Source: a virus
DNA: 28,383 nucleotides
Virus genome (UHGV): UHGV-0136520
Reading direction: 5' to 3' (one strand)
Shown: piece after piece, positions 1 through 7,013 of the stretch
Layout of the letters: every line of letters starts with the position of its first letter
Numbering within the stretch: the stretch's first letter is position 1
Notes under the pieces: model-generated
What the model saw: the letters and a program-made list of their open reading frames with translations, nothing else
Told to the model about the DNA's origin: nothing
Databases searched by the model: none
Translations under genes and position numbers: made by a program

Positions 1-273
1 TCAACATTTCTTATAATTATTTGTTCTTACTCGTTCCCATTCAATTCTGCCTTCTTCACGCCGCTGGTCTATATACTCAGCAAGATCCTGAATGTTGATG
101 CAGCGCTTTGCTTTCTGCGATGTTCCTACACGATAAGTCGGGATAGGCAACTGGCAGGCATTTGCTTTCGCTTCTGCTGTGTTAGGGCTCATACCGAAAT
201 ACTTTTGGCATACAGCTGATAGCTCGATGTTAGGCGTGTTGAACTCAGCCATAAGTAAAAACAAAGTATTCAT
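1..273 (-). CDS. Excisionase-like small DNA-binding protein (PrtN/AlpA-type HTH), 90 aa
   Basis: Complete ORF in track with stop codon at window positions 1-3. Small HTH-like protein at the far left of the early-left operon, the usual xis position. Family assignment is from memory of PrtN-like excisionases and is not verified. Confidence 0.45.
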   Translation of the reverse strand: MNTLFLLMAEFNTPNIELSAVCQKYFGMSPNTAEAKANACQLPIPTYRVGTSQKAKRCINIQDLAEYIDQRREEGRIEWERVRTNNYKKC

Positions 274-310
274 AGACGTTCTCCATACAACCTGGCTGCA
301 CCCAGGGGAA

Positions 311-883
311 TTACAGATCGCTGCTGGTGGCCGGAATCAACTTCTTCCAGATCGCGGACACGTATTTTGCCTGATGGCGCGCATCGGCCAGTGCGTTATG
401 TGCGACCCCATCGAATGGCATGTCTCGCTTAGGGTCGAAACCCACAACTCTGCCTAATGTAACGATGGTTCTGACGTCGTGATCATCCCAAAATTGCCAC
501 GGGCAAACCTGGCCGGCGCGCTCATATGCTCCGCGTAATATAACGTTGTCGAAAGTAGCTCCATTGCCCCAAACCTTTAAATATTTAGGGTTATCAGAAT
601 GCCGATTAATGAAATGGCTAAGTTCAGATAGGGCAGACGATATTGGCAGAGAATCATCAACACAGATTGCTGATCGTGCTTCTGGGCTTTGTCTTAACCA
701 CCACAGAATAGTGTCACCATCCGGCACTGCTCCCTGATCCATAGCACTTTCAAGATTAACGGCGGTGTAAAACTCCTGACCCAGTTCACCGCTTTGCGGA
801 TCGAAGAACACGGCACCAATGGAGACGATAGGGGCATTCGGTTTTTTGCCCATGGATTCAAGGTCGATCATTAAATTGTTCAC
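311..883 (-). CDS. Phage DEDD-type 3'-5' exonuclease (DnaQ-like fold), 190 aa
   Basis: Track ORF. Motifs MIDLESMG (Asp/Glu of exo motif I), WGNGATFD and HNALADARH (His/Asp of exo motif III) fit a DEDDh exonuclease. Start sits 2 nt from the upstream gene stop. Confidence 0.55.
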   Translation of the reverse strand: MNNLMIDLESMGKKPNAPIVSIGAVFFDPQSGELGQEFYTAVNLESAMDQGAVPDGDTILWWLRQSPEARSAICVDDSLPISSALSELSHFINRHSDNPKYLKVWGNGATFDNVILRGAYERAGQVCPWQFWDDHDVRTIVTLGRVVGFDPKRDMPFDGVAHNALADARHQAKYVSAIWKKLIPATSSDL

Positions 884-884
884 G

Positions 885-1355
885 TTAAAAATTCTCCTGT
901 TTTGGTGCTGTTTTTAGCATTGCGGCGCGGCAGGCGTTCCATCCCCTGACTTCTGCGATTGCAGCTACAGCATCAATCGCATGCATTTTCGACGCTTCTG
1001 GCATCGGCTTTTCATCCGGTACTACTGGCGCTGGAGGGGCGGTGTAGAGTGGAATTGTTTTGTATTCTGCCACGCCCGTTTTTCGTTCTTGATTCCATTC
1101 ATCAACCCAGCCGTCTACGACATTTTTGCAGGTTGATACGGCGTCGGTGTCCAGGTTGACTCCCTGCATTGCATACAGAACGGGCTCAGCACCACACGAT
1201 GCAATCACCCCAGCAATCACCTTCACAGCATCAGCCATTGCGTAGCCGAGATTACCGCCGTCGCTTTGTGCTGCTGCTTTGCTGAGTATTTCGCTTATCT
1301 GGTGCAGGCGATCGAGTGATACAGGACCGTTCGCCGGGTGGTTGTTAGTTGTCAT
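885..1355 (-). CDS. Hypothetical phage early protein, 156 aa
   Basis: Track ORF tightly packed between neighbours (4-nt and 2-nt gaps). No recognisable catalytic motif. Confidence 0.5.
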   Translation of the reverse strand: MTTNNHPANGPVSLDRLHQISEILSKAAAQSDGGNLGYAMADAVKVIAGVIASCGAEPVLYAMQGVNLDTDAVSTCKNVVDGWVDEWNQERKTGVAEYKTIPLYTAPPAPVVPDEKPMPEASKMHAIDAVAAIAEVRGWNACRAAMLKTAPKQENF

Positions 1356-1358
1356 GGG

Positions 1359-1553
1359 TTAGTCCTCCCAATCCCATACGGCAAAAGCATGGTCATCATC
1401 GCAATCAATTTCGCCTTTCTCGCCACACTCTGAGCAAACCACACCATCGCCAGCATAGAGGAATTCTGGAGTGCCTTTATCTGTGTGCACGTCGAGTTCA
1501 TCACTGTCACATTTGGGGCAAAAACCTGCCCATTTGATTCTTAACACGGTCAT
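1359..1553 (-). CDS. Small Cys-rich zinc-ribbon-like protein, 64 aa
   Basis: Two CxxC pairs (CPKC and CSEC). Start placed at ATG 1553-1551, which follows the upstream stop 1557-1555 by one base (TGA-t-ATG). The track ORF extends to 1619 (86 aa) as an alternative start. Confidence 0.4.
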   Translation of the reverse strand: MTVLRIKWAGFCPKCDSDELDVHTDKGTPEFLYAGDGVVCSECGEKGEIDCDDDHAFAVWDWED

Positions 1554-1554
1554 A

Positions 1555-1731
1555 TCAATCACCCCATTCTTCATAAAAGAAGTCATCAACGCGCTTTTGC
1601 GCCTCGTACGCGGCTTCAATTTCCATTTCAGTGATATCGAAATTTTTACCGTTCAGCTCCACCATGCACTCAAGAGCCTCACCCCAATCCTGAAGCGATG
1701 AGTTACGTTTTGTTGCGCTAAAATCTGCCAT
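1555..1731 (-). CDS. Small acidic hypothetical protein, 58 aa, absent from ORF track (below 60 aa)
   Basis: Hand translation of minus strand: MADFSATKRNSSLQDWGEALECMVELNGKNFDITEMEIEAAYEAQKRVDDFFYEEWGD. SD GGGGGAG lies 4-5 nt upstream. Its start is one base after the upstream gene stop and its own stop abuts the next start, indicating translational coupling. Confidence 0.4.
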   Translation of the reverse strand: MADFSATKRNSSLQDWGEALECMVELNGKNFDITEMEIEAAYEAQKRVDDFFYEEWGD

Positions 1732-1732
1732 C

Positions 1733-2260
1733 TCACTCCCCCTTCACGCCAATGCCAGCGGCGCGGAGTGCTTCTATGAAAACATCAAGCCCCTGATTAA
1801 ATCCGATAGCCTCATAAAACTGTTTTGTGTGCATGTCCGGTGAATTGCGATATTCGGGCAGCTTCACCGTCCGCGCCTCCAGTTCTGCTATGCGCTGCCG
1901 AGCAGACTGATAAGCATCGATAACCACGTCCAACAATTGCCCGTCACACAGCAGTTTGCTAAGTTCAGGCTTCCACGCTACACAGTCATCATCCGGGTCC
2001 TGCATGTTGTAGACGTAAGTATCAAAAGCACCCATAAAGCGCCCGAATCCACCTTTGTCGTCTACAAGCACTTGCCAGGCGCGGAGAAGAAACAGTTTTT
2101 GGTTACGATCTAAATCCGTTCGGGATAGCTCATCGGCGATAATGCTGATTTCACTACCGTGCCAGCGAGCATCGTTGCGTTGCGCCGCATGAAACAATTT
2201 CCAGAAATACTCGGTTTCTTTCTGGTCAGGGCGGCATTGCTTAATTGTATGGACTGTCAT
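1733..2260 (-). CDS. Hypothetical phage early protein, 175 aa
   Basis: Track ORF. Start chosen at ATG 2260 (MTVHTIK), which has GGAG about 9 nt upstream, rather than the track's GTG at 2269. Confidence 0.5.
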   Translation of the reverse strand: MTVHTIKQCRPDQKETEYFWKLFHAAQRNDARWHGSEISIIADELSRTDLDRNQKLFLLRAWQVLVDDKGGFGRFMGAFDTYVYNMQDPDDDCVAWKPELSKLLCDGQLLDVVIDAYQSARQRIAELEARTVKLPEYRNSPDMHTKQFYEAIGFNQGLDVFIEALRAAGIGVKGE

Positions 2261-2288
2261 GCTGCACACTCCTGTTTGTTGTGTGCTG

Positions 2289-2543
2289 TCATTGGGCTGC
2301 TCCTTGTCTGGCTCTGCTCAAGAGCTGGTTAAACATCATGGTTAGGCTGTTACTACACCCAAACGGCATATCGTTAACACGGTAAGTAGGAATTCCCTTG
2401 CGAACACCAGACTTCACGATCCGGCCGGTGCCATAGAGTTGCGATAATGCGCCAGCGACCGCGGGTGTCTTTTTGTTCATACCTTTGGCGATTTCACCGC
2501 TGGTGGTATTCGGATGAGCCTGGAGATATTCAAATACGGTCAT
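2289..2543 (-). CDS. Putative winged-helix DNA-binding protein, 84 aa
   Basis: Track ORF. Segment TSGEIAKGMNKKTPAVAGALSQLYGTGRIV looks like an HTH recognition helix plus wing. Its ATG overlaps the upstream stop (ATGA). Confidence 0.45.
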   Translation of the reverse strand: MTVFEYLQAHPNTTSGEIAKGMNKKTPAVAGALSQLYGTGRIVKSGVRKGIPTYRVNDMPFGCSNSLTMMFNQLLSRARQGAAQ

Positions 2544-2716
2544 GGCGTTTTACCTTTACGTTCCTGTTCCAGTTGCACCAGAGACTCTTTTAATGCTGCG
2601 AACGTAGCGTCCAGTCTGGTGGCGACTTCGCGCATAAGCGGTGCATGTTTTGGTGGTAATTCAGCAACGGAGGCAAAAGCCTCCGCTACGAGCTCTTTTA
2701 CCTTCATGCGGCGCAT
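2540..2716 (-). CDS. Small hypothetical protein, 58 aa, absent from ORF track
   Basis: Hand translation: MRRMKVKELVAEAFASVAELPPKHAPLMREVATRLDATFAALKESLVQLEQERKGKTP. GGAG lies 8 nt upstream. Start overlaps the end of the HD-protein gene and the stop overlaps the next ATG (ATGA). Confidence 0.4.
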   Translation of the reverse strand: MRRMKVKELVAEAFASVAELPPKHAPLMREVATRLDATFAALKESLVQLEQERKGKTP

Positions 2717-3243
2717 TGGCGCTGCTCCATCAACTCGTTAAAGCGATTCATGAACATGCCGTATGACTGGCCTGGACGAACTGGGTTGATGATGAATAAA
2801 TCCGTTGGGATAACTCCCTGGAGGCAAGGCCACACAGAACCTTCGTCAATCTCAAAATCGCGGCGTTCGCTGGCGAGCATCACCAAATCGGCATATTTAA
2901 CGGTCGGGTGTTGCTCCGTTGGCAGGCCAAATTTCTGACGAATAGCAGCGTCTACGCGAGTTTCGATCACCTGGTAATCCGGTAACAGGCGCTTAAGCGG
3001 AGAGGGAATATCCTGCAAGTAGGCTTCGGCTGCATCATGAAGCAGTGCTTCTAATGCAAACTCCTGCGGGACGAGGTGGCTGGTTAAAACGCTATGTTGG
3101 CCGACGCTGTAAAACTCAGGTAGATGCCCTGCAAAGCGGCATAAGTGAGACAGCGCAGTAGCGATATCCTCGATCACGATATCGTCCTGTTGGATATCGA
3201 GGTAATTAAAGTGTTTGCCGGATAATGTCTGAATGTAGCTCAT
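2704..3243 (-). CDS. HD-domain phosphohydrolase (YfdR-like 5'-deoxynucleotidase family), 179 aa
   Basis: HD-domain signature: conserved His residues (ALSHLCRFAGH, HSVLTSH) followed by the HD dyad in LLHDAAEAY. Start chosen at ATG 3243 with GGAG 8 nt upstream. Confidence 0.65.
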   Translation of the reverse strand: MSYIQTLSGKHFNYLDIQQDDIVIEDIATALSHLCRFAGHLPEFYSVGQHSVLTSHLVPQEFALEALLHDAAEAYLQDIPSPLKRLLPDYQVIETRVDAAIRQKFGLPTEQHPTVKYADLVMLASERRDFEIDEGSVWPCLQGVIPTDLFIINPVRPGQSYGMFMNRFNELMEQRQCAA

Positions 3244-3335
3244 GGTTTTCTCCATATTGGCGCGCTGCACCGCGCAGATTTTGGTTGCACGAATCCCTCG
3301 CCGGGTGGCGATAATTAATGGAATTACGCTTCAAT

Positions 3336-3359
3336 AAATCCCCGCGGCGCCGGGGATTT
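3336..3359. repeat. Perfect 24-bp palindrome between the YfdQ-like and HD-protein genes
   Basis: AAATCCCCGCGGCGCCGGGGATTT is fully self-complementary. It sits in the 100-bp spacer inside the leftward operon. Confidence 0.4.
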
Positions 3360-3371
3360 AATGCAGAGCAA

Positions 3372-4199
3372 TTAGGCTTTAAAGTTACCGATGAAAGTTT
3401 CCACTGATTCACCGTCGAACTTGCTGATCAGCAAATCGCGGAATTCGTTGGCGATCGCTTCTTCCTGTGCTTCCAGTTGGACGATGCGCAGAACAAAGCA
3501 GGGTTCATCGCTGGTCAGCAGGCTGTTACGCAAGCTAAAACGGCGTTCGCCCAGACCTTCATACGGCACACATTTGAATTCAAACGCCACAGGCATTACG
3601 TCTTTGCTGCTTGCTTCAACGCTTTGCATCAGGGATTTTTTACCAGCGAAATCACTAGTTTCATGGTCCTGCTGGGTTGCTTGTTGAATGGTGATACGAC
3701 GCACAGCCTGAGCCGCCTGGGAAATCTGCATCGTATTGCCATCAGCATCAAACGCCAGCAGGTAATCGCTCCAGTCTTCCAGCCATTCAGCAATTTGCTT
3801 TTGCTTCAGACGTTGACCATCGATCTGCAGTAACGCGCGGAACGGGGCGGTTTTCTTCAGGGTGATTGAAGCAACGTTATCGGCGTGACCGGGATTATCC
3901 AGGGTGCCGATATTGAACACTGAACGGGCGGTCATGTTGTCAGCGTCAATGAAGCAACGAGCTGGCTCACTGTCGCTGGCGTAACCTTTAGAATAACGTG
4001 CGAAGTCGTCAATACTGGTTGTTGTCATTGCACCACGGAAGCGGAAACGCTCCAGAGAAAAGCGCTCAAGGCTTTCAACGTTAGTACCATCTGGCAGCAA
4101 TGCGGTCGGGCAAGCCAGGCCATGAATATCATTCAGGTGGTAGCCAGAAAGGACCAGGTCTTTTACCTGCTGAAATGTACCGCTGTCTAACTGAGACAT
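3372..4199 (-). CDS. YfdQ-like prophage protein (DUF2303-type), 275 aa
   Basis: Track ORF. Length and sequence match my recollection of E. coli CPS-53/KplE1 prophage YfdQ (about 274 aa). Sits next to the YfdR-like HD protein, as in that prophage. Confidence 0.55.
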   Translation of the reverse strand: MSQLDSGTFQQVKDLVLSGYHLNDIHGLACPTALLPDGTNVESLERFSLERFRFRGAMTTTSIDDFARYSKGYASDSEPARCFIDADNMTARSVFNIGTLDNPGHADNVASITLKKTAPFRALLQIDGQRLKQKQIAEWLEDWSDYLLAFDADGNTMQISQAAQAVRRITIQQATQQDHETSDFAGKKSLMQSVEASSKDVMPVAFEFKCVPYEGLGERRFSLRNSLLTSDEPCFVLRIVQLEAQEEAIANEFRDLLISKFDGESVETFIGNFKA

Positions 4200-4255
4200 A
4201 GAAATTCCTTATTAACTGATGATCGAAGTGGTATCAGTGAGTTTGTTGTTGCGGA

Positions 4256-4627
4256 TCACTGAGCCGCTTTAAGCTTTCCATCCACCGCGCCAGTGATCCC
4301 GAACAGCTGACCCTGATCTTCCTGCAGGATAGTGAGCTTCCCCCCTTTGTTGACCCACATCGGGGTTTCGGTTGTGTCCTCTTCGGAGGCTTTACCACGC
4401 GGTGTCGGGGTGCTGTAGTTCAGCTTGTGCTTGATCTTGACGCGCTTCTCTTCAACGGAATTACCCATACGCTCAAAATCAAATGTGAGGACTACTTTGC
4501 CTTTGTTGCCGTTGTTCAGAACGCCAAGCGCGGTGGTATTAAGTGCTGCCGCGATTTTGTTCATGAACACGCCGGCATCCAGTTCGCCAAGAAAATCTGG
4601 CACTACGGTCATGCGGTCATTACTCAT
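4256..4627 (-). CDS. Hypothetical early protein, 123 aa (YfdP-like by position)
   Basis: Track ORF with SD GAGGGT 6 nt upstream of ATG 4627. First credible gene of the leftward operon. No N-like arginine-rich motif. Confidence 0.45.
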   Translation of the reverse strand: MSNDRMTVVPDFLGELDAGVFMNKIAAALNTTALGVLNNGNKGKVVLTFDFERMGNSVEEKRVKIKHKLNYSTPTPRGKASEEDTTETPMWVNKGGKLTILQEDQGQLFGITGAVDGKLKAAQ

Positions 4628-5538
4628 GCTTTTACCCTCGTTAAGGCGGCTGCAACCGCCGAACTTTCTCCATACACAACAGAGAAGGGCACCTGCATTG
4701 GTCGGCGGCTTGCAGAGACCGCTTTCTTTTTGCCCGGGTGGATTGGGTTATGAGCCCGTCGCCCGGTGATGCCCTTTTCTGTTGCGTAAAAAGGGCGGTA
4801 CCGAGGTAGAACATTATCTTCGTCCCCCTTGCATAAGGTTGAAGACCTGGTACCGCCAAGACTACACACAGCAATACTGGAACTACGGTTATCACAGTCC
4901 TAAGCGTGATTTGGTTGTGGTTGCTGGTGCTGAACTCCAGCTCAGTGGCGCGGTGTTTCAATATCGTAACCGCCCGTTCCATCCGCGTTCGATCAGTCCG
5001 TATGCTCGCTTAGAACGTTTCGCCTGCTTATCTTTTCTCAACCGTTTGACGGTCAGCCCCGCCATTTACCACAACGAAGAGAGCACTGCCGGTGTTCGAA
5101 TCGAACGAACCTTTTCCCTGCCCAACCCTCCCAACTGAATGGGACTGTCTGGAATCGAACCAGCACTTATGCCTTGCTCGTCAATGCTCTCGTCGTTGCG
5201 CCCTGAAAAAGGCTGGCGGTTACCGGACAAGTGGGAAAACACCGGGCCGCCAGAACAGGGAGTTACTTGTTATTGCTTTAGCCTGCTTTTAACCACATCA
5301 GGCGCGGTGGTAGGTATCTTCGGGCGGGGCGCTGGCGACCAACCAGCTACAACCCCTACGGTATTTACACTCCACGCCGTGGGTTAACGGCTCCGTATCG
5401 TGGCTGAGTTTCTGTTGCTGGTGGTCAAGCCAGCTTCGCAACCCCTCCCGAAGACACCTGTCAACGAATCATCCGGTTATTCATATGCCACCGGCGGCTA
5501 CTTCGTGGGCGTCCTGCCTGTTCGCTGTTGATGAATTA

Positions 5539-5567
5539 AATATACCTGTGAGTAATTTTTGTGTAAA
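5539..5567 (-). promoter_or_regulatory. Candidate leftward early promoter (PL-like): TTTACA-17 nt-TATATT on the minus strand
   Basis: Minus-strand -35 TTTACA (5567-5562) and -10 TATATT (5544-5539) with a 17-nt spacer, inside an AT-rich block at 5520-5640. Hexamers read by eye only. Confidence 0.3.
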
Positions 5568-5679
5568 TACCTATTGGTATATTTTTATTTACCTTAATGG
5601 CAACTACTTGCTTTTAATTGGATTTTATTTAAGTAGGTGATGCGTGTTATGCTCAAAAAAACACCAGAAAGGGCTTGGT

Positions 5680-5886
5680 ATGGAACGTGACGAACTGGAA
5701 GAAGACCGTGCGGCATTCATAGCTGGCGAGATTGGCGGCGCAGTTGTCGAATTGATAATCGGCGGAGTAGTGATTGACCGTGATGCGATCGTCGATTGTT
5801 TGGAAAGAAAACGACGTGCGGTGGGCAACGTGATCCACAAAGGTGTTCTGCGAGACGCCGCTGCTATGGTGAGAAAAGGGCAGTAA
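5680..5886 (+). CDS. Small hypothetical protein, 68 aa, convergent with cI
   Basis: ATG at 5680 with SD GAAAGGG 5 nt upstream. Product MERDELEEDRAAFIAGEIGGAVVELIIGGVVIDRDAIVDCLERKRRAVGNVIHKGVLRDAAAMVRKGQ. Ends at the shared terminator hairpin. Confidence 0.4.
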   Translation: MERDELEEDRAAFIAGEIGGAVVELIIGGVVIDRDAIVDCLERKRRAVGNVIHKGVLRDAAAMVRKGQ

Positions 5887-5910
5887 AAACCCGGCTCAGT
5901 GGCCGGGTTA
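5885..5910. terminator. Bidirectional intrinsic terminator between the small plus-strand gene and cI
   Basis: Stem CCCGGC (5890-5895), 6-nt loop, GCCGGG (5902-5907), flanked by AAAAA on one side and TTAGATGTTATTT on the other. Read on the minus strand the hairpin is followed by a U-run, so it should terminate the cI transcript. Confidence 0.55.
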
Positions 5911-5960
5911 GATGTTATTTCATTAAGAGTTAGGTCTGTTCAACTATCCAAAAATAGCAG

Positions 5961-6671
5961 TTACAGTTTATTGTAAGCTATTGATTCATGGAGCAGAGCT
6001 TTACCCATGATATACAGTTGATCCTGATTTTCTTCAGTTATATACCAGTCTTTGTACACTGGATTATCGGACAGGACTGCAAGCTGCAAGCCCTGCATTT
6101 GTAATCGCTTCACGTGGAAGTGTTGTCCGAAAACGAACGCATAAACACCGTCCACCTTGAAATTTCTTATCGAAATATCGAAAAACAACCTGTCACCAGA
6201 CTGGATGGTTGGGCACATGCTGTCGCCATCTACAGTCATTACTTTAACATCATCCTGAGAACGATTCCCGAAGAGTGAACGAGCGTGCTCAGTAGTGAAC
6301 TCAATAGCGTGTAGAACCTCAACAAACTCAGAAATCATGAAAGACCCTGGACCTGCGCTCACAGTAAGATCGAGAACTTCTACACGATAAGTGTCGATAT
6401 TGCGGGCGGGTACATCAATATCCATATTTGAGGTTGGGCCAAGACCATCCAACCATCCTCTGCTGATTTTCAAAGCATCTTCGATCTGCCGAGCCGCTTG
6501 CTCACCAATATTCCGCTTATTAGGTTTACCAACAGGGTAAAGCATCCGAGAGACAACAGTCGGATCAAGCCCTGCATTTTCAGCAAACTCTTTCTGGGTT
6601 TTATAGCGAGTTACCAACTCCTGAAGTTTGAGGCGTCGTAACTCGAAGATGTCAGGCGATTCAGTTTTCAT
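5961..6671 (-). CDS. cI: CI-type prophage repressor (N-terminal HTH, C-terminal S24 LexA-like autopeptidase), 236 aa
   Basis: C-terminal domain carries the Ser nucleophile context GDSM (DGDSMCPT) and the Lys in HVKRL, typical of S24 peptidases. Divergent from a Cro-like gene across an operator-rich spacer. Confidence 0.8.
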   Translation of the reverse strand: MKTESPDIFELRRLKLQELVTRYKTQKEFAENAGLDPTVVSRMLYPVGKPNKRNIGEQAARQIEDALKISRGWLDGLGPTSNMDIDVPARNIDTYRVEVLDLTVSAGPGSFMISEFVEVLHAIEFTTEHARSLFGNRSQDDVKVMTVDGDSMCPTIQSGDRLFFDISIRNFKVDGVYAFVFGQHFHVKRLQMQGLQLAVLSDNPVYKDWYITEENQDQLYIMGKALLHESIAYNKL

Positions 6672-6770
6672 AATTCCATCTTACTTAAATTTACTTCAAG
6701 GTAAATGACTTGTGAGTATTGACATGTATTTACTTAAAGGTATATTTAATTTCCAAACATAGGAGGCGTG
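6672..6770. promoter_or_regulatory. Immunity operator/promoter region (OR-like) with a rightward PR-like promoter
   Basis: Repeated imperfect palindromes TTTACTTCAAGGTAAA (6690-6705) and TTTACTTAAAGGTATA (6729-6744), plus a partial copy at 6681-6693. PR-like -35 TTGACA (6719-6724), 16-nt spacer, -10 TATATT (6741-6746). AGGAGG at 6761-6766 precedes the cro-like ATG. Confidence 0.55.
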
Positions 6771-7013
6771 ATGGAAACGTTAAGAAATTACCTAAACGCT
6801 TTGTCGCTCGAAAAACAGAGAGAATTTGCAGCACGATGCGAAACCTCTCTTGAGTACCTGCGTAAAGCCATTAGCAAAAAGCAAAAGTTGGGAGCTGCTC
6901 TATCTGTTTCTATCGAAACACAATCTGGCGGCTCAGTTAGTAGAAAAAATCTTCACCCGGATGATTGGGAAAAGATTTGGCCTGAACTGGAGCATAAAAA
7001 AACAGCGGCATGA
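6771..7013 (+). CDS. Cro-like small HTH regulator, 80 aa
   Basis: First gene rightward of the operator region. ATG 6771 follows SD AGGAGG. Small protein with an HTH-like segment (ARCETSLEYLRKAISKKQKL). Confidence 0.5.
   Translation: METLRNYLNALSLEKQREFAARCETSLEYLRKAISKKQKLGAALSVSIETQSGGSVSRKNLHPDDWEKIWPELEHKKTAA

Follow-up and report, generated by a model that had tools for sequence, protein, structure and literature searches.

Reports on phage lambda describe shifts in the lysis-lysogeny decision caused by small proteins of the exo-xis region (PMC3824215, PMC8614690). Ea22 has been described as an N-terminal region followed by a coiled coil and a C-terminal domain, and in phage 933W it is split by a gene insertion, such that its domains reside in two genes (PMC10834534; PMC8614690 section 4.5). 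In E. coli K-12, yfdQ and yfdR together with either yfdS or yfdT inhibit initiation at oriC, and YfdR binds DnaA (PMC4776307).

The locus considered here lies in the virus genome UHGV-0136520, of which a stretch of 28,383 nucleotides was analyzed (the window). It carries two reading frames of 58 aa, ORF1 and ORF2, in an operon segment shown to be equivalent to the lambda exo-xis region. Judged from comparison with their relatives, both are shown to be genuine, conserved protein-coding genes that form an accessory part of the leftward early operon of a prophage. The explanation that we favor, with a probability of about 0.7, is that of conserved, tightly packed genes; the roles proposed below for their products are held much more tentatively.

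The leftward early operon and its two small genes

The initial annotation had assigned the two frames to an early-left operon of lambdoid type, and their location in such an operon of a prophage is borne out by a repressor, a cro-like ORF and promoter-like sites (Table 1). The genes flanking ORF1 and ORF2 are all on the minus strand, and the two ORFs are the sole occupants of two gaps in an otherwise gap-free operon. The YfdQ/DUF2303 gene of the yfdPQR-type module matches PF10065 (E 8.5e-67), and the gene calls of two loci with the same gene layout (L003 and L007) carry both PF27127 (YfdP) and PF10065. The YfdR homolog of the window shares 63% identity with YfdR of E. coli K-12 (E 3e-90) and matches phrog_318 (E 1e-95). 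The 175-aa gene that precedes ORF1 starts at ATG 2260, backed by an AGGAG Shine-Dalgarno (SD) sequence; its C-terminal 57 aa are 49% identical to an ead/Ea22-like protein of phage UPF_BP1, and its tail is common to lambda Ea22 (...AGIRIKGE). On the other side, the zinc-ribbon gene comes after an ORF1-type gene of 58 aa in 13 of the loci fetched. A search for RNA families returned none in the window (Rfam, gathering threshold), nor in positions 1-7000 at E <= 1.

Table 1. Coordinates of the two small reading frames, their neighbors and associated signals in the window
Feature	Position	Strand	Description
Zinc-ribbon gene	1359..1553	minus	64 aa, acidic; phrog_4446, E 6e-13
ORF1	1555..1731	minus	58 aa, ATG start, MADFSATKRN...EEWGD; ORF listing at minimum 30 aa
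175-aa gene	1733..2260	minus	Upstream of ORF1; Ea22-type tail ...ALRAAGIGVKGE
SD of ORF1	1736..1744	minus	AAGGGGGAG; in last codons (K-G-E) of upstream gene
Winged-helix-like gene	2289..2543	minus	84 aa; phrog_1687 (MarR-family regulator), E 4.5e-25
ORF2	2540..2716	minus	58 aa, ATG start, MRRMKVKELV...KGKTP; ORF listing at minimum 30 aa
Putative coupling junction in yfdR 3' end	2704..2728	minus	SD GGAG 2728-2725, ATG 2716-2714, yfdR TGA 2706-2704
YfdR homolog	2704..3243	minus	179 aa, HD-domain 5'-deoxynucleotidase family; directly upstream of ORF2
YfdQ/DUF2303 gene	3372-4199	minus	With YfdP-like gene, heads yfdPQR-type module
YfdP-like gene	4256-4627	minus	With YfdQ/DUF2303 gene, heads yfdPQR-type module
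Promoter-like site	5567-5539	(-)	
cI-like S24 repressor	5961-6671		
Promoter-like site	6719-6746	(+)	
cro-like ORF	6768-7013		

As had been pointed out at the outset, both ORFs are missing from the ORF track: they are listed at a minimum of 30 aa and absent at >=60 aa, because they are 58 codons long and the display cutoff is 60 codons. The novelty that this seemed to imply did not stand. The exact proteins are found in public databases as "hypothetical protein" from Citrobacter, Salmonella and E. coli (144 blocks for ORF1 and 8225 for ORF2 in an exact-protein index of a public collection), the sense ORFs are called by gene callers and PGAP, and RefSeq annotates a homolog of ORF2 in E. coli, Nissle 1917 included. 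Since the exact proteins are deposited and both match PHROG families, the finding of the ORFs is a display-cutoff artifact and not a discovery. No functional study of either protein was found in the literature by accession or PHROG number. The practical lesson is that a 60-codon ORF filter conceals real, strongly conserved phage genes; in the part of the operon read here it conceals two of 11 genes, and a third has only 64 codons.

Junctions, ribosome-binding sites and selection

Along the minus strand, the TGA of the 175-aa gene (1735-1733) is separated by a single g (1732) from the ATG of ORF1 (1731-1729), and the TGA of ORF1 (1557-1555) by a single t (1554) from the ATG at 1553 of the zinc-ribbon gene. 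The yfdR-like gene overlaps the beginning of ORF2, from its ATG onward, by 13 nt; a second ATG in the same frame, at codon 4 of ORF2, makes ATGA with the yfdR stop, and the stop of ORF2 forms a further ATGA (2543-2540) with the start of the 84-aa gene. The starts and stops were said in the initial annotation to abut or overlap neighboring genes, and they do so at each junction (TGA-g-ATG, TGA-t-ATG, ATGA and the 13-nt overlap). In all relatives examined, the spacing between upstream stop and downstream start is +1 to -13 nt. These arrangements are typical of translational coupling, and the coupling itself is putative.

The strength of SD sequences was taken as the pairing energy to the 16S tail, ranked among the 985 ATGs of the window. 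Both ORFs were claimed to possess such sequences, and both have one: the SD of ORF1 reaches -10.8 kcal/mol, a value matched by only 0.5% of these ATGs, and the first ATG of ORF2 is served by GGAG with an 8-nt spacer (-5.6 kcal/mol, top 14%). The codon-4 ATG of ORF2, at -1.9 kcal/mol, has no SD. The GGA and the first ATG are invariant in an alignment of the window, K-12 yfdR-yfdS, Flotzy, Kp4866-6 and phiNP; codon 1 is M throughout the ORF2 family and codon 4 is M or L, and in Kp4866-6 there is the first ATG only, as TAATG with the yfdR stop. Alignment and predicted pairing together show ATG 2716, and not the codon-4 ATG, to be the probable start of ORF2.

The junctions bear on the exchange of accessory genes among lambdoid phages. 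At the 3' end of yfdR, and likewise in the '...AGIGVKGE' tail, the final codons of one gene are conserved and contain the ribosome-binding site and the start codon from which the gene after it is translated. Because these signals lie inside a conserved previous gene, unrelated downstream genes may be swapped and still be translated.

Purifying selection on both ORFs is strong. In each of them pN/pS is lowest in the sense frame, with pooled values of 0.18 for ORF1 and 0.24 for ORF2, and of 1.0-2.7 in four other frames. Frame -1 antisense to ORF2 has a pN/pS of 0.31, a low value that is expected because its wobble positions are common to the sense frame. Homologous clusters number 82 for ORF1, all of them named 'hypothetical', and 80 for ORF2. 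Among relatives of ORF1 the synonymous sites are saturated (pS 0.73-0.80) and pN is merely 0.05-0.07; many relatives of ORF2 differ from the window sequence by 4-7 synonymous changes and 0 non-synonymous ones. The initial annotation had named loss of the reading frames in homologous prophages as one observation that would speak against the two genes; the frames and their overlaps are retained in the relatives.

The ORF2 and ORF1 families

ORF2 is basic (pI 9.7), and its AF2 model (pLDDT 90.3) is a predicted helical hairpin with helices at residues 6-17 and 25-55. Residues 1-58 match positions 1-58 of 65 in phrog_12248 (unknown function; E 1e-34). Short forms of 58-66 aa occur in Citrobacter, Salmonella, E. 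coli, Kluyvera and Enterobacter at identities as low as ~50%, with the last ~10 residues varying across the family. In other phages an ORF2-like N-terminal module heads proteins of 117-209 aa with differing C-terminal PHROG modules. ORF2 aligns with residues 2-50 of 150-209-aa proteins (BLAST E 1e-5 to 1e-14), these same proteins also match phrog_12248, and three long forms finish in ...AGI(S/R)I(K/N)GE. By these alignments, the longer proteins in the same post-yfdR slot are shown to share homology with ORF2 over their first ~48 residues; in terms of sequence ORF2 is a head-only, stand-alone form of the N-terminal module that heads them. In the model the chain stops at residue 58, still in the second helix, and the combination of coiled coil and C-terminal domain was not found in ORF2. 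The 224-aa members of its 90% cluster proved to be unrelated proteins, brought in by a clustering artifact.

The association with yfdR is close in both directions. A YfdR homolog ends <=40 nt from the ORF2 start in 90 of the 91 loci found through ORF2, and of the 80 loci found through YfdR, 73 are joined with ORF2 in a single BLAST-linked cluster, with a direct match to the ORF2 N-terminal module in all but one of these. The starts of the post-yfdR genes in the YfdR-found loci overlap yfdR by 1, 4, 10 or 13 nt. The identical ORF2 protein is accompanied by YfdR alleles whose identity to the one in the window ranges over 69-97%; co-evolution is thus not in evidence, and the shared overlap could by itself account for the adjacency.

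ORF1 is very acidic (pI 4.07, net charge -10.5), a property compatible with many other roles besides those proposed for it. Its AF2 model (pLDDT 81.5) has three predicted helices, at 13-26, 35-43 and 48-56. Over residues 1-57, ORF1 aligns with positions 76-135 of the 143-position profile of phrog_519 (unknown function; E 2.3e-9), a match that covers the C-terminal part of the profile only; homologs from Webervirus and an LF82 phage match the same segment. Homologs of ORF1 occur in 36 phage records, 27 of them from Klebsiella, and the family extends to virulent T1-like phages of Klebsiella (Drexlerviridae/Webervirus KpV522, gp21). A tail of the form 'AGI(G/K)VKGE' precedes ORF1 in most relatives, and in the P22-like phage UPF_BP1 the ORF1 homolog comes after ead/Ea22. 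The Webervirus gene upstream of ORF1 was considered as a homolog of the Ea22 tail and rejected on comparison. A pattern-limited scan of species-representative genomes for ORF1 returned only Citrobacter braakii ATCC 51113, and an exhaustive HMM search with the ORF1 profile gave only 14 representative clusters and, as to remote relatives, none that was informative.

Searches of PADLOC, Pfam and NCBIfam gave no credible match for the two ORFs, and sequence searches of the PDB gave no match for either. Foldseek comparison of both AF2 models with the PDB and BFVD returned none at E <= 0.001, the generic helical matches having E > 0.9.

Possible roles and comparison with known systems

The role proposed for ORF2 is argued by analogy. 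It would be the free 'head' (short N-terminal domain and coiled-coil start) of a protein of Ea22 architecture, would oligomerize or dock with the YfdQ-YfdR module, and would thereby modulate host replication or the lysis-lysogeny decision; the proposal is tentative and falls short of even odds. For ORF1 we propose a soluble binder or mimic by which, early in infection, a nucleic-acid-handling protein of the host or phage would be titrated; the need that it meets would be common to temperate and virulent phages. This suggestion is held just as tentatively.

A different assignment, to host-takeover or anti-defense factors of the Kil, CIII and Ral kind, was advanced in the initial annotation. One or both ORFs would then encode such a factor, for example one that blocks a restriction or nuclease system by acidic mimicry. 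Both are located in the early operon, ORF1 combines small size and acidity with a presence in temperate and virulent phages alike, and its downstream neighbor matches a Lar-like zinc ribbon below threshold. Yet neither ORF is homologous to Kil, CIII, Ral or Gam, the hhalign probability being <=0.5% for both against the lambda Kil, CIII and Ral proteins, and no structural match to a known inhibitor was found. The sole PADLOC hit, of ORF1 to Menshen NsnC (E 0.0033), was rejected, since just one of 23 family members matches; likewise, the zinc-ribbon neighbor was rejected as a relative of Lar/RalR or of YdaE of the Rac prophage, having no similarity to them and family matches below threshold. The Kil/cIII/ral class was therefore not upheld, and with no homology, fold or family support, the argument for a takeover or anti-defense role is left to position, size and charge. 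We consider such a role unlikely.

ORF2 may also be regarded as a remnant, namely the truncated 5' part of a longer gene of Ea22 architecture, cut by insertion of the winged-helix gene and other DNA; it would be kept mainly because its translation is needed to couple yfdR to the genes downstream, and not for any action of the peptide. Long forms with the same N-terminal module in the same slot, the documented splitting of Ea22 by insertion in 933W, the overlap of both the start and the stop of ORF2 with neighbors and the variable end of the family agree with such an origin. The strong conservation of its amino acids argues against it, as does the persistence of short forms across five genera, and a mere coupling relay would leave residues 5-48 unconstrained. 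A remnant is thus rather improbable, and the stand-alone head described above is preferred.

A bolder proposal would make the ~48-residue hairpin of the ORF2 type a dedicated docking module, by which interchangeable effector domains are tethered to the DnaA-binding YfdQ-YfdR module. On its own, as the 58-aa form, the hairpin would act as the smallest cofactor able to turn on the inhibition of replication initiation in the host. ORF1 would, separately, represent a novel acidic protein that inhibits or mimics a nucleic-acid enzyme or a defense protein of the host, present in temperate lambdoid and virulent T1-like phages; as a whole, this is a long shot. It is extremely improbable that the ORFs are chance open frames in spacers, or that the real genes are the + strand antisense ORFs at 1471-1701 (76 aa) and 2514-2741 (75 aa), which exceed 60 aa and of which the frame opposite ORF2 is free of stops in 57 of 60 close relatives, given that stops interrupt the frames opposite ORF1 (~2 on average in relatives) and opposite ORF2 (3 of 60), and that the sense ORFs have the lowest pN/pS, SD sequences, a fit to their neighbors to the nucleotide, flanking genes on their own strand and the calls of gene callers and PGAP.

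Among known systems, Kil, CIII and Ral of lambda are likewise small proteins of the PL operon. The lambda proteins Orf60a, Orf61, Orf63, Ea8.5 and Orf55 share with ORF1 and ORF2 the same early leftward neighborhood, next to an Ea22-type gene and between recombination or accessory genes and xis. The exo-xis small proteins are of comparable size (55-93 aa) and act by mechanisms that are mostly unknown. They have no sequence relationship to ORF1 or ORF2, as hhalign of both profiles against Kil, CIII, Gam, Ral, Ea8.5, Orf55, Orf60a, Orf61, Orf63 and Ea22 gave <=2% each. The gene order of ea22 followed by ea8.5 raised the idea that ORF1 and the zinc-ribbon gene represent a split lambda Ea8.5 (a homeodomain/zinc-finger hybrid). 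It was rejected on the Pfam, hhalign and Foldseek results: neither gene matches PF20735 (Lambda_ea8_5), the hhalign probability is 0.5%, a BLAST match has an E of 0.056 across 13 residues only, and the solved Ea8.5-type structures were not returned by Foldseek.

Gp5.9 and Ocr of phage T7 are small acidic inhibitor proteins. ORF1 resembles them in being small, strongly acidic, helical by prediction and encoded early, including in virulent phages; it differs in that no solved structure matches it in sequence or in fold, and its action as a DNA mimic is speculation.

YfdS, of the CPS-53 prophage of E. coli K-12, resembles ORF2 in following yfdR directly and in using the same start codon in the yfdR 3' end, and differs in carrying DUF551 (PF04448), which ORF2, with no Pfam match, lacks. 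ORF2 was rejected as a homolog of YfdS or YfdT (BLAST E 0.067 and 2.0, respectively; hhalign 0.85% for YfdS), and the analogy with K-12 is therefore positional only. If ORF2 works with YfdQ-YfdR, it would be a new component of the only described DnaA-binding prophage module, which is a conjecture.

The N-terminus of lambda Ea22 has no detectable homology to the ORF2 module, and ORF2 has no C-terminal domain, yet the long relatives of ORF2 display the Ea22 plan, in which a short N-terminal region is followed by a coiled coil and then by a variable C-terminal domain, and three of them carry the same ...AGIxIxGE tail. Domains of the Ea22 type appear here to be divided between genes, as they are in 933W.

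Gene layout and coding evidence

The minus-strand genes of positions 1-4627 form an unbroken run containing two ATG-initiated ORFs of 58 codons each, ORF1, which encodes MADFSATKRNSSLQDWGEALECMVELNGKNFDITEMEIEAAYEAQKRVDDFFYEEWGD, and ORF2, which encodes MRRMKVKELVAEAFASVAELPPKHAPLMREVATRLDATFAALKESLVQLEQERKGKTP, both read from the window where the initial annotation had placed them. Because of the cI-like S24 repressor, a cro-like ORF and the promoter-like sites, the leftward early operon of a lambdoid prophage, as proposed there, is a fair label for this run.

Features of the gene run containing ORF1 and ORF2 and of the repressor region, in window positions
Feature	Position	Strand
YfdP-like gene	4256-4627	-
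YfdQ/DUF2303 gene	3372-4199	-
YfdR-like HD phosphohydrolase gene	2704-3243	-
ORF2	2540-2716	-
84-aa winged-helix-like gene	2289-2543	-
175-aa gene with Ea22-type tail	1733-2260	-
ORF1	1555-1731	-
64-aa zinc-ribbon gene	1359-1553	-
156-aa gene	885-1355	-
Rv2179c-like 3'-5' exonuclease gene	311-883	-
PrtN/excisionase-like gene	1-273	-
cI-like S24 repressor	5961-6671	
Promoter-like site	6719-6746	+
Promoter-like site	5567-5539	-

Nei-Gojobori statistics were computed across all six frames for homologous DNA taken from phage records and from public and viral contigs. For both ORFs the lowest pN/pS was that of the annotated frame (0.18 for ORF1, 0.24 for ORF2); four other frames gave 1.0-2.7, and the remaining antisense frame, which shares its wobble positions with the sense frame, gave the expected value of ~0.3. 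Even where synonymous sites are saturated (pS 0.73-0.80), ORF1 relatives show a pN of just 0.05-0.07, while dozens of ORF2 relatives carry 4-7 synonymous and no non-synonymous changes. Conservation of frames and overlaps, suggested earlier as a check, was found throughout: the sense frames are open in all relatives, even the most divergent (Flotzy, phiNP and Kp4866-6), and the junctions are kept. The plus-strand ORF opposite ORF1 is interrupted by stops in relatives. An antisense 75-aa ORF opposite ORF2 (2514-2741, +) is open in 57 of 60 close relatives and has stops in three; with a pN/pS of 0.31 in the frame sharing the ORF2 wobble positions, it is probably a by-product of a sense sequence rich in Ala, Leu and Glu, and not a gene. 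The AlphaFold2 models are confident for both: three helices for ORF1 (pLDDT 81.5) and, for ORF2 (pLDDT 90.3), a helical hairpin whose second helix is long. ORF1 and ORF2 are real, conserved genes in a translational-coupling arrangement.

Both proteins are already known, as anonymous annotated hypothetical proteins. Public entries match both exactly: 'hypothetical protein [Citrobacter freundii]' for ORF1 and, for ORF2, a hypothetical protein of Salmonella and Citrobacter, in at least 1000 contigs; the indexed blocks of a public collection number 144 for ORF1 and 8225 for ORF2. In E. coli, for instance in Nissle 1917, the ORF2 homologue (177 nt) is annotated by RefSeq/PGAP and overlaps its neighbours by 13 and 4 nt, as in the window. 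The ORFs match phrog_519 (ORF1, E 2e-9) and phrog_12248 (ORF2, E 1e-34), two families of unknown function; Pfam and NCBIfam hold no family for either, and PADLOC gave no credible match.

Elsewhere in the run, the PrtN/excisionase-like gene ends with its stop codon exactly at the first position of the window, with no integrase to the left; in L003 and L007, two loci of the same gene layout, beyond this end come a SocA_Panacea-domain gene and then host zur, dinF and lexA. Which start the exonuclease gene uses is ambiguous (GTG 883 with AGGAG 10 nt upstream, or ATG 871 without an SD). Some 0.9 kb (4630-5540) between the leftward promoter-like site and the yfdP-like gene holds no convincing ORF, is also left empty by gene callers in loci of the same layout and has no Rfam match; pieces of it match E. 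coli prophage DNA near a 'ClpX C4-type zinc finger protein' gene, and possible explanations are a degraded gene and a long, nutL-like leader. An inverted repeat at 3322-3373, with 23-nt arms (83% complementary) around a 6-nt loop, includes part of the yfdQ stop codon, lies in the 128-nt yfdQ-yfdR spacer and has no T-run after it on either strand; it may act in RNA processing or stability, or as an attenuator inside the operon.

Junctions and the surroundings of ORF1

The starts and stops overlap or abut neighbouring genes as the initial annotation described: TGA-g-ATG joins the 175-aa gene to ORF1, TGA-t-ATG joins ORF1 to the zinc-ribbon gene, and ATGA joins ORF2 to the 84-aa gene, while the 5' end of ORF2 overlaps the yfdR-like gene by 13 nt, with a further ATGA internally at its codon 4. 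The proposed SD sequences are likewise present. For ORF1 this is AAGGGGGAG, whose pairing energy with the 16S tail (-10.8 kcal/mol) ranks among the best 0.5% for window ATGs; the first ATG of ORF2 follows GGAG with an 8-nt spacer (-5.6 kcal/mol), and its codon-4 ATG (-1.9 kcal/mol) is without an SD. Of the translational coupling claimed earlier, what stands is an arrangement of coupling type, as judged from the sequence.

ORF1 is strongly acidic (pI 4.07, net charge ~-10.5 across 58 residues) and has an invariant, aromatic- and acidic-rich C-terminus, RVDDFFYEEW; no fold or sequence match suggesting a function was found. The tail ...AGI(G/K)VKGE closes the gene before ORF1 in ~20 of 32 loci, irrespective of the rest of that gene, and the tail codons form the ORF1 SD. 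Proteins that otherwise have no relationship, lambda Ea22 among them, share this tail with its stop (window 1733-1760, -). What follows ORF1 differs between types: the 58-aa type precedes the zinc-ribbon gene, the 59-aa types precede other genes, and the next gene always lies +4 to -4 nt from the ORF1 stop. The family is narrow (at 50% identity, 1.84 billion proteins yielded 14 representative clusters) and spans phage lifestyles: it occurs in the P22-like Salmonella phage UPF_BP1, directly after an ead/Ea22-like gene, in 27 phage records from Klebsiella, one of them the virulent Webervirus KpV522 (gp21), and in LF82 phages of E. coli, where it lies among clustered small early genes. The gene upstream of the homologue is unrelated to Ea22 in the virulent phages.

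The zinc-ribbon gene is a third very small gene (64 aa, pI 4.1, CxxC...CxxC, phrog_4446), apparently coupled to the ORF1 stop. Its matches to Lar/restriction-alleviation proteins are sub-threshold only (Pfam E 0.04; TIGR03655 E 0.027), and it has no similarity to RalR or to YdaE of the Rac prophage. One locus (L005) carries it as a fusion with a relative of the 156-aa gene in the window. The start chosen for it by public gene callers lies 8-32 nt inside ORF1; ATG 1553, with the SD GGGGTGAT, looks more likely.

ORF2 and the yfdR 3' end

The gene upstream of ORF2 is 63% identical to E. coli K-12 YfdR, and a YfdR homologue ends at most 40 nt from the ORF2 start in 90 of 91 loci retrieved via ORF2. 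The predicted start is codon 1, because this codon is M family-wide while codon 4 is M or L, because Klebsiella phage Kp4866-6 has the first ATG only, as TAATG with the yfdR stop, and because an SD is present at codon 1 only. In a junction alignment of five phages, the GGA of this SD and the ATG are invariant inside the yfdR coding sequence, and in K-12 the non-homologous yfdS, a DUF551 protein gene, starts at the very same ATG (window 2704-2728, -; K-12 locus L120, 6490-6525). The yfdR 3' end thus serves different downstream genes as a fixed translational 'socket'; it sits at a mosaic boundary.

Among loci retrieved via YfdR, the socket protein falls into one BLAST-linked cluster with ORF2 in 73 of 80, and all but one of these 73, a 249-aa protein, directly match the N-terminal ~48 residues of ORF2. 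The short kind (58-72 aa) is ORF2-like; the long kind (117-209 aa) joins the same N-module to a coiled coil and differing C-terminal PHROG modules, three of them terminating in ...AGI(S/R)I(K/N)GE.

Identical ORF2 proteins pair with YfdR alleles 69-71% and 97% identical to the window's, and there is thus no signal of co-evolution. In loci L243/L044, L245/L076 and L251/L038 an identical ORF2 lies behind a YfdR only ~70% identical to that of the window. The conservation of ORF2 is far above that of its upstream neighbour, which points to recombination at or within the yfdR 3' end. Useful by-products are a corrected ORF2 start, the placing of ORF2, as a head-only form, in a modular family tied to the yfdR 3' end, and two conserved SD-in-tail junctions, which explain the exchange of these accessory genes.

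Comparison with lambda and K-12

The initial annotation had pointed to the kil, cIII and ral class, to which small early-left proteins often belong. Membership of this class was not supported: profiles of both families gave negative results against lambda Kil, CIII, Gam, Ral, Ea8.5, Orf55, Orf60a, Orf61, Orf63 and Ea22, and the suggested host-takeover or anti-defence role is therefore a possibility that these comparisons do not support. Such a role is slightly more plausible for ORF1 than for ORF2, since ORF1 is acidic and occurs also in virulent phages. The earlier observation is thus confirmed and its interpretation partly supported.

In K-12, YfdR binds domain I of DnaA, and yfdQ and yfdR inhibit oriC initiation when joined by either yfdS or yfdT (PMC4776307); a function for ORF2 would be inferred from position only, by way of this yfdQRST set.

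Lambda Ea22 (L121, 2340-2365) has the same tail type as the gene before ORF1, ...AGIRIKGE-TGA-g-ATC, yet lambda carries ATC in place of the ORF1 ATG, and the next ~190 nt hold no gene. This may be what remains of a lost ORF1-type start, although a match this short cannot decide it. Ea22 is described as having a tetrameric coiled coil between a variable N-terminal region and a C-terminal domain, and in phage 933W it is divided into two genes by an insertion (PMC10834534; PMC8614690 section 4.5). The long ORF2-type socket proteins share this architecture and, given the documented split, ORF2 is best described as the free head module of an Ea22-architecture protein.
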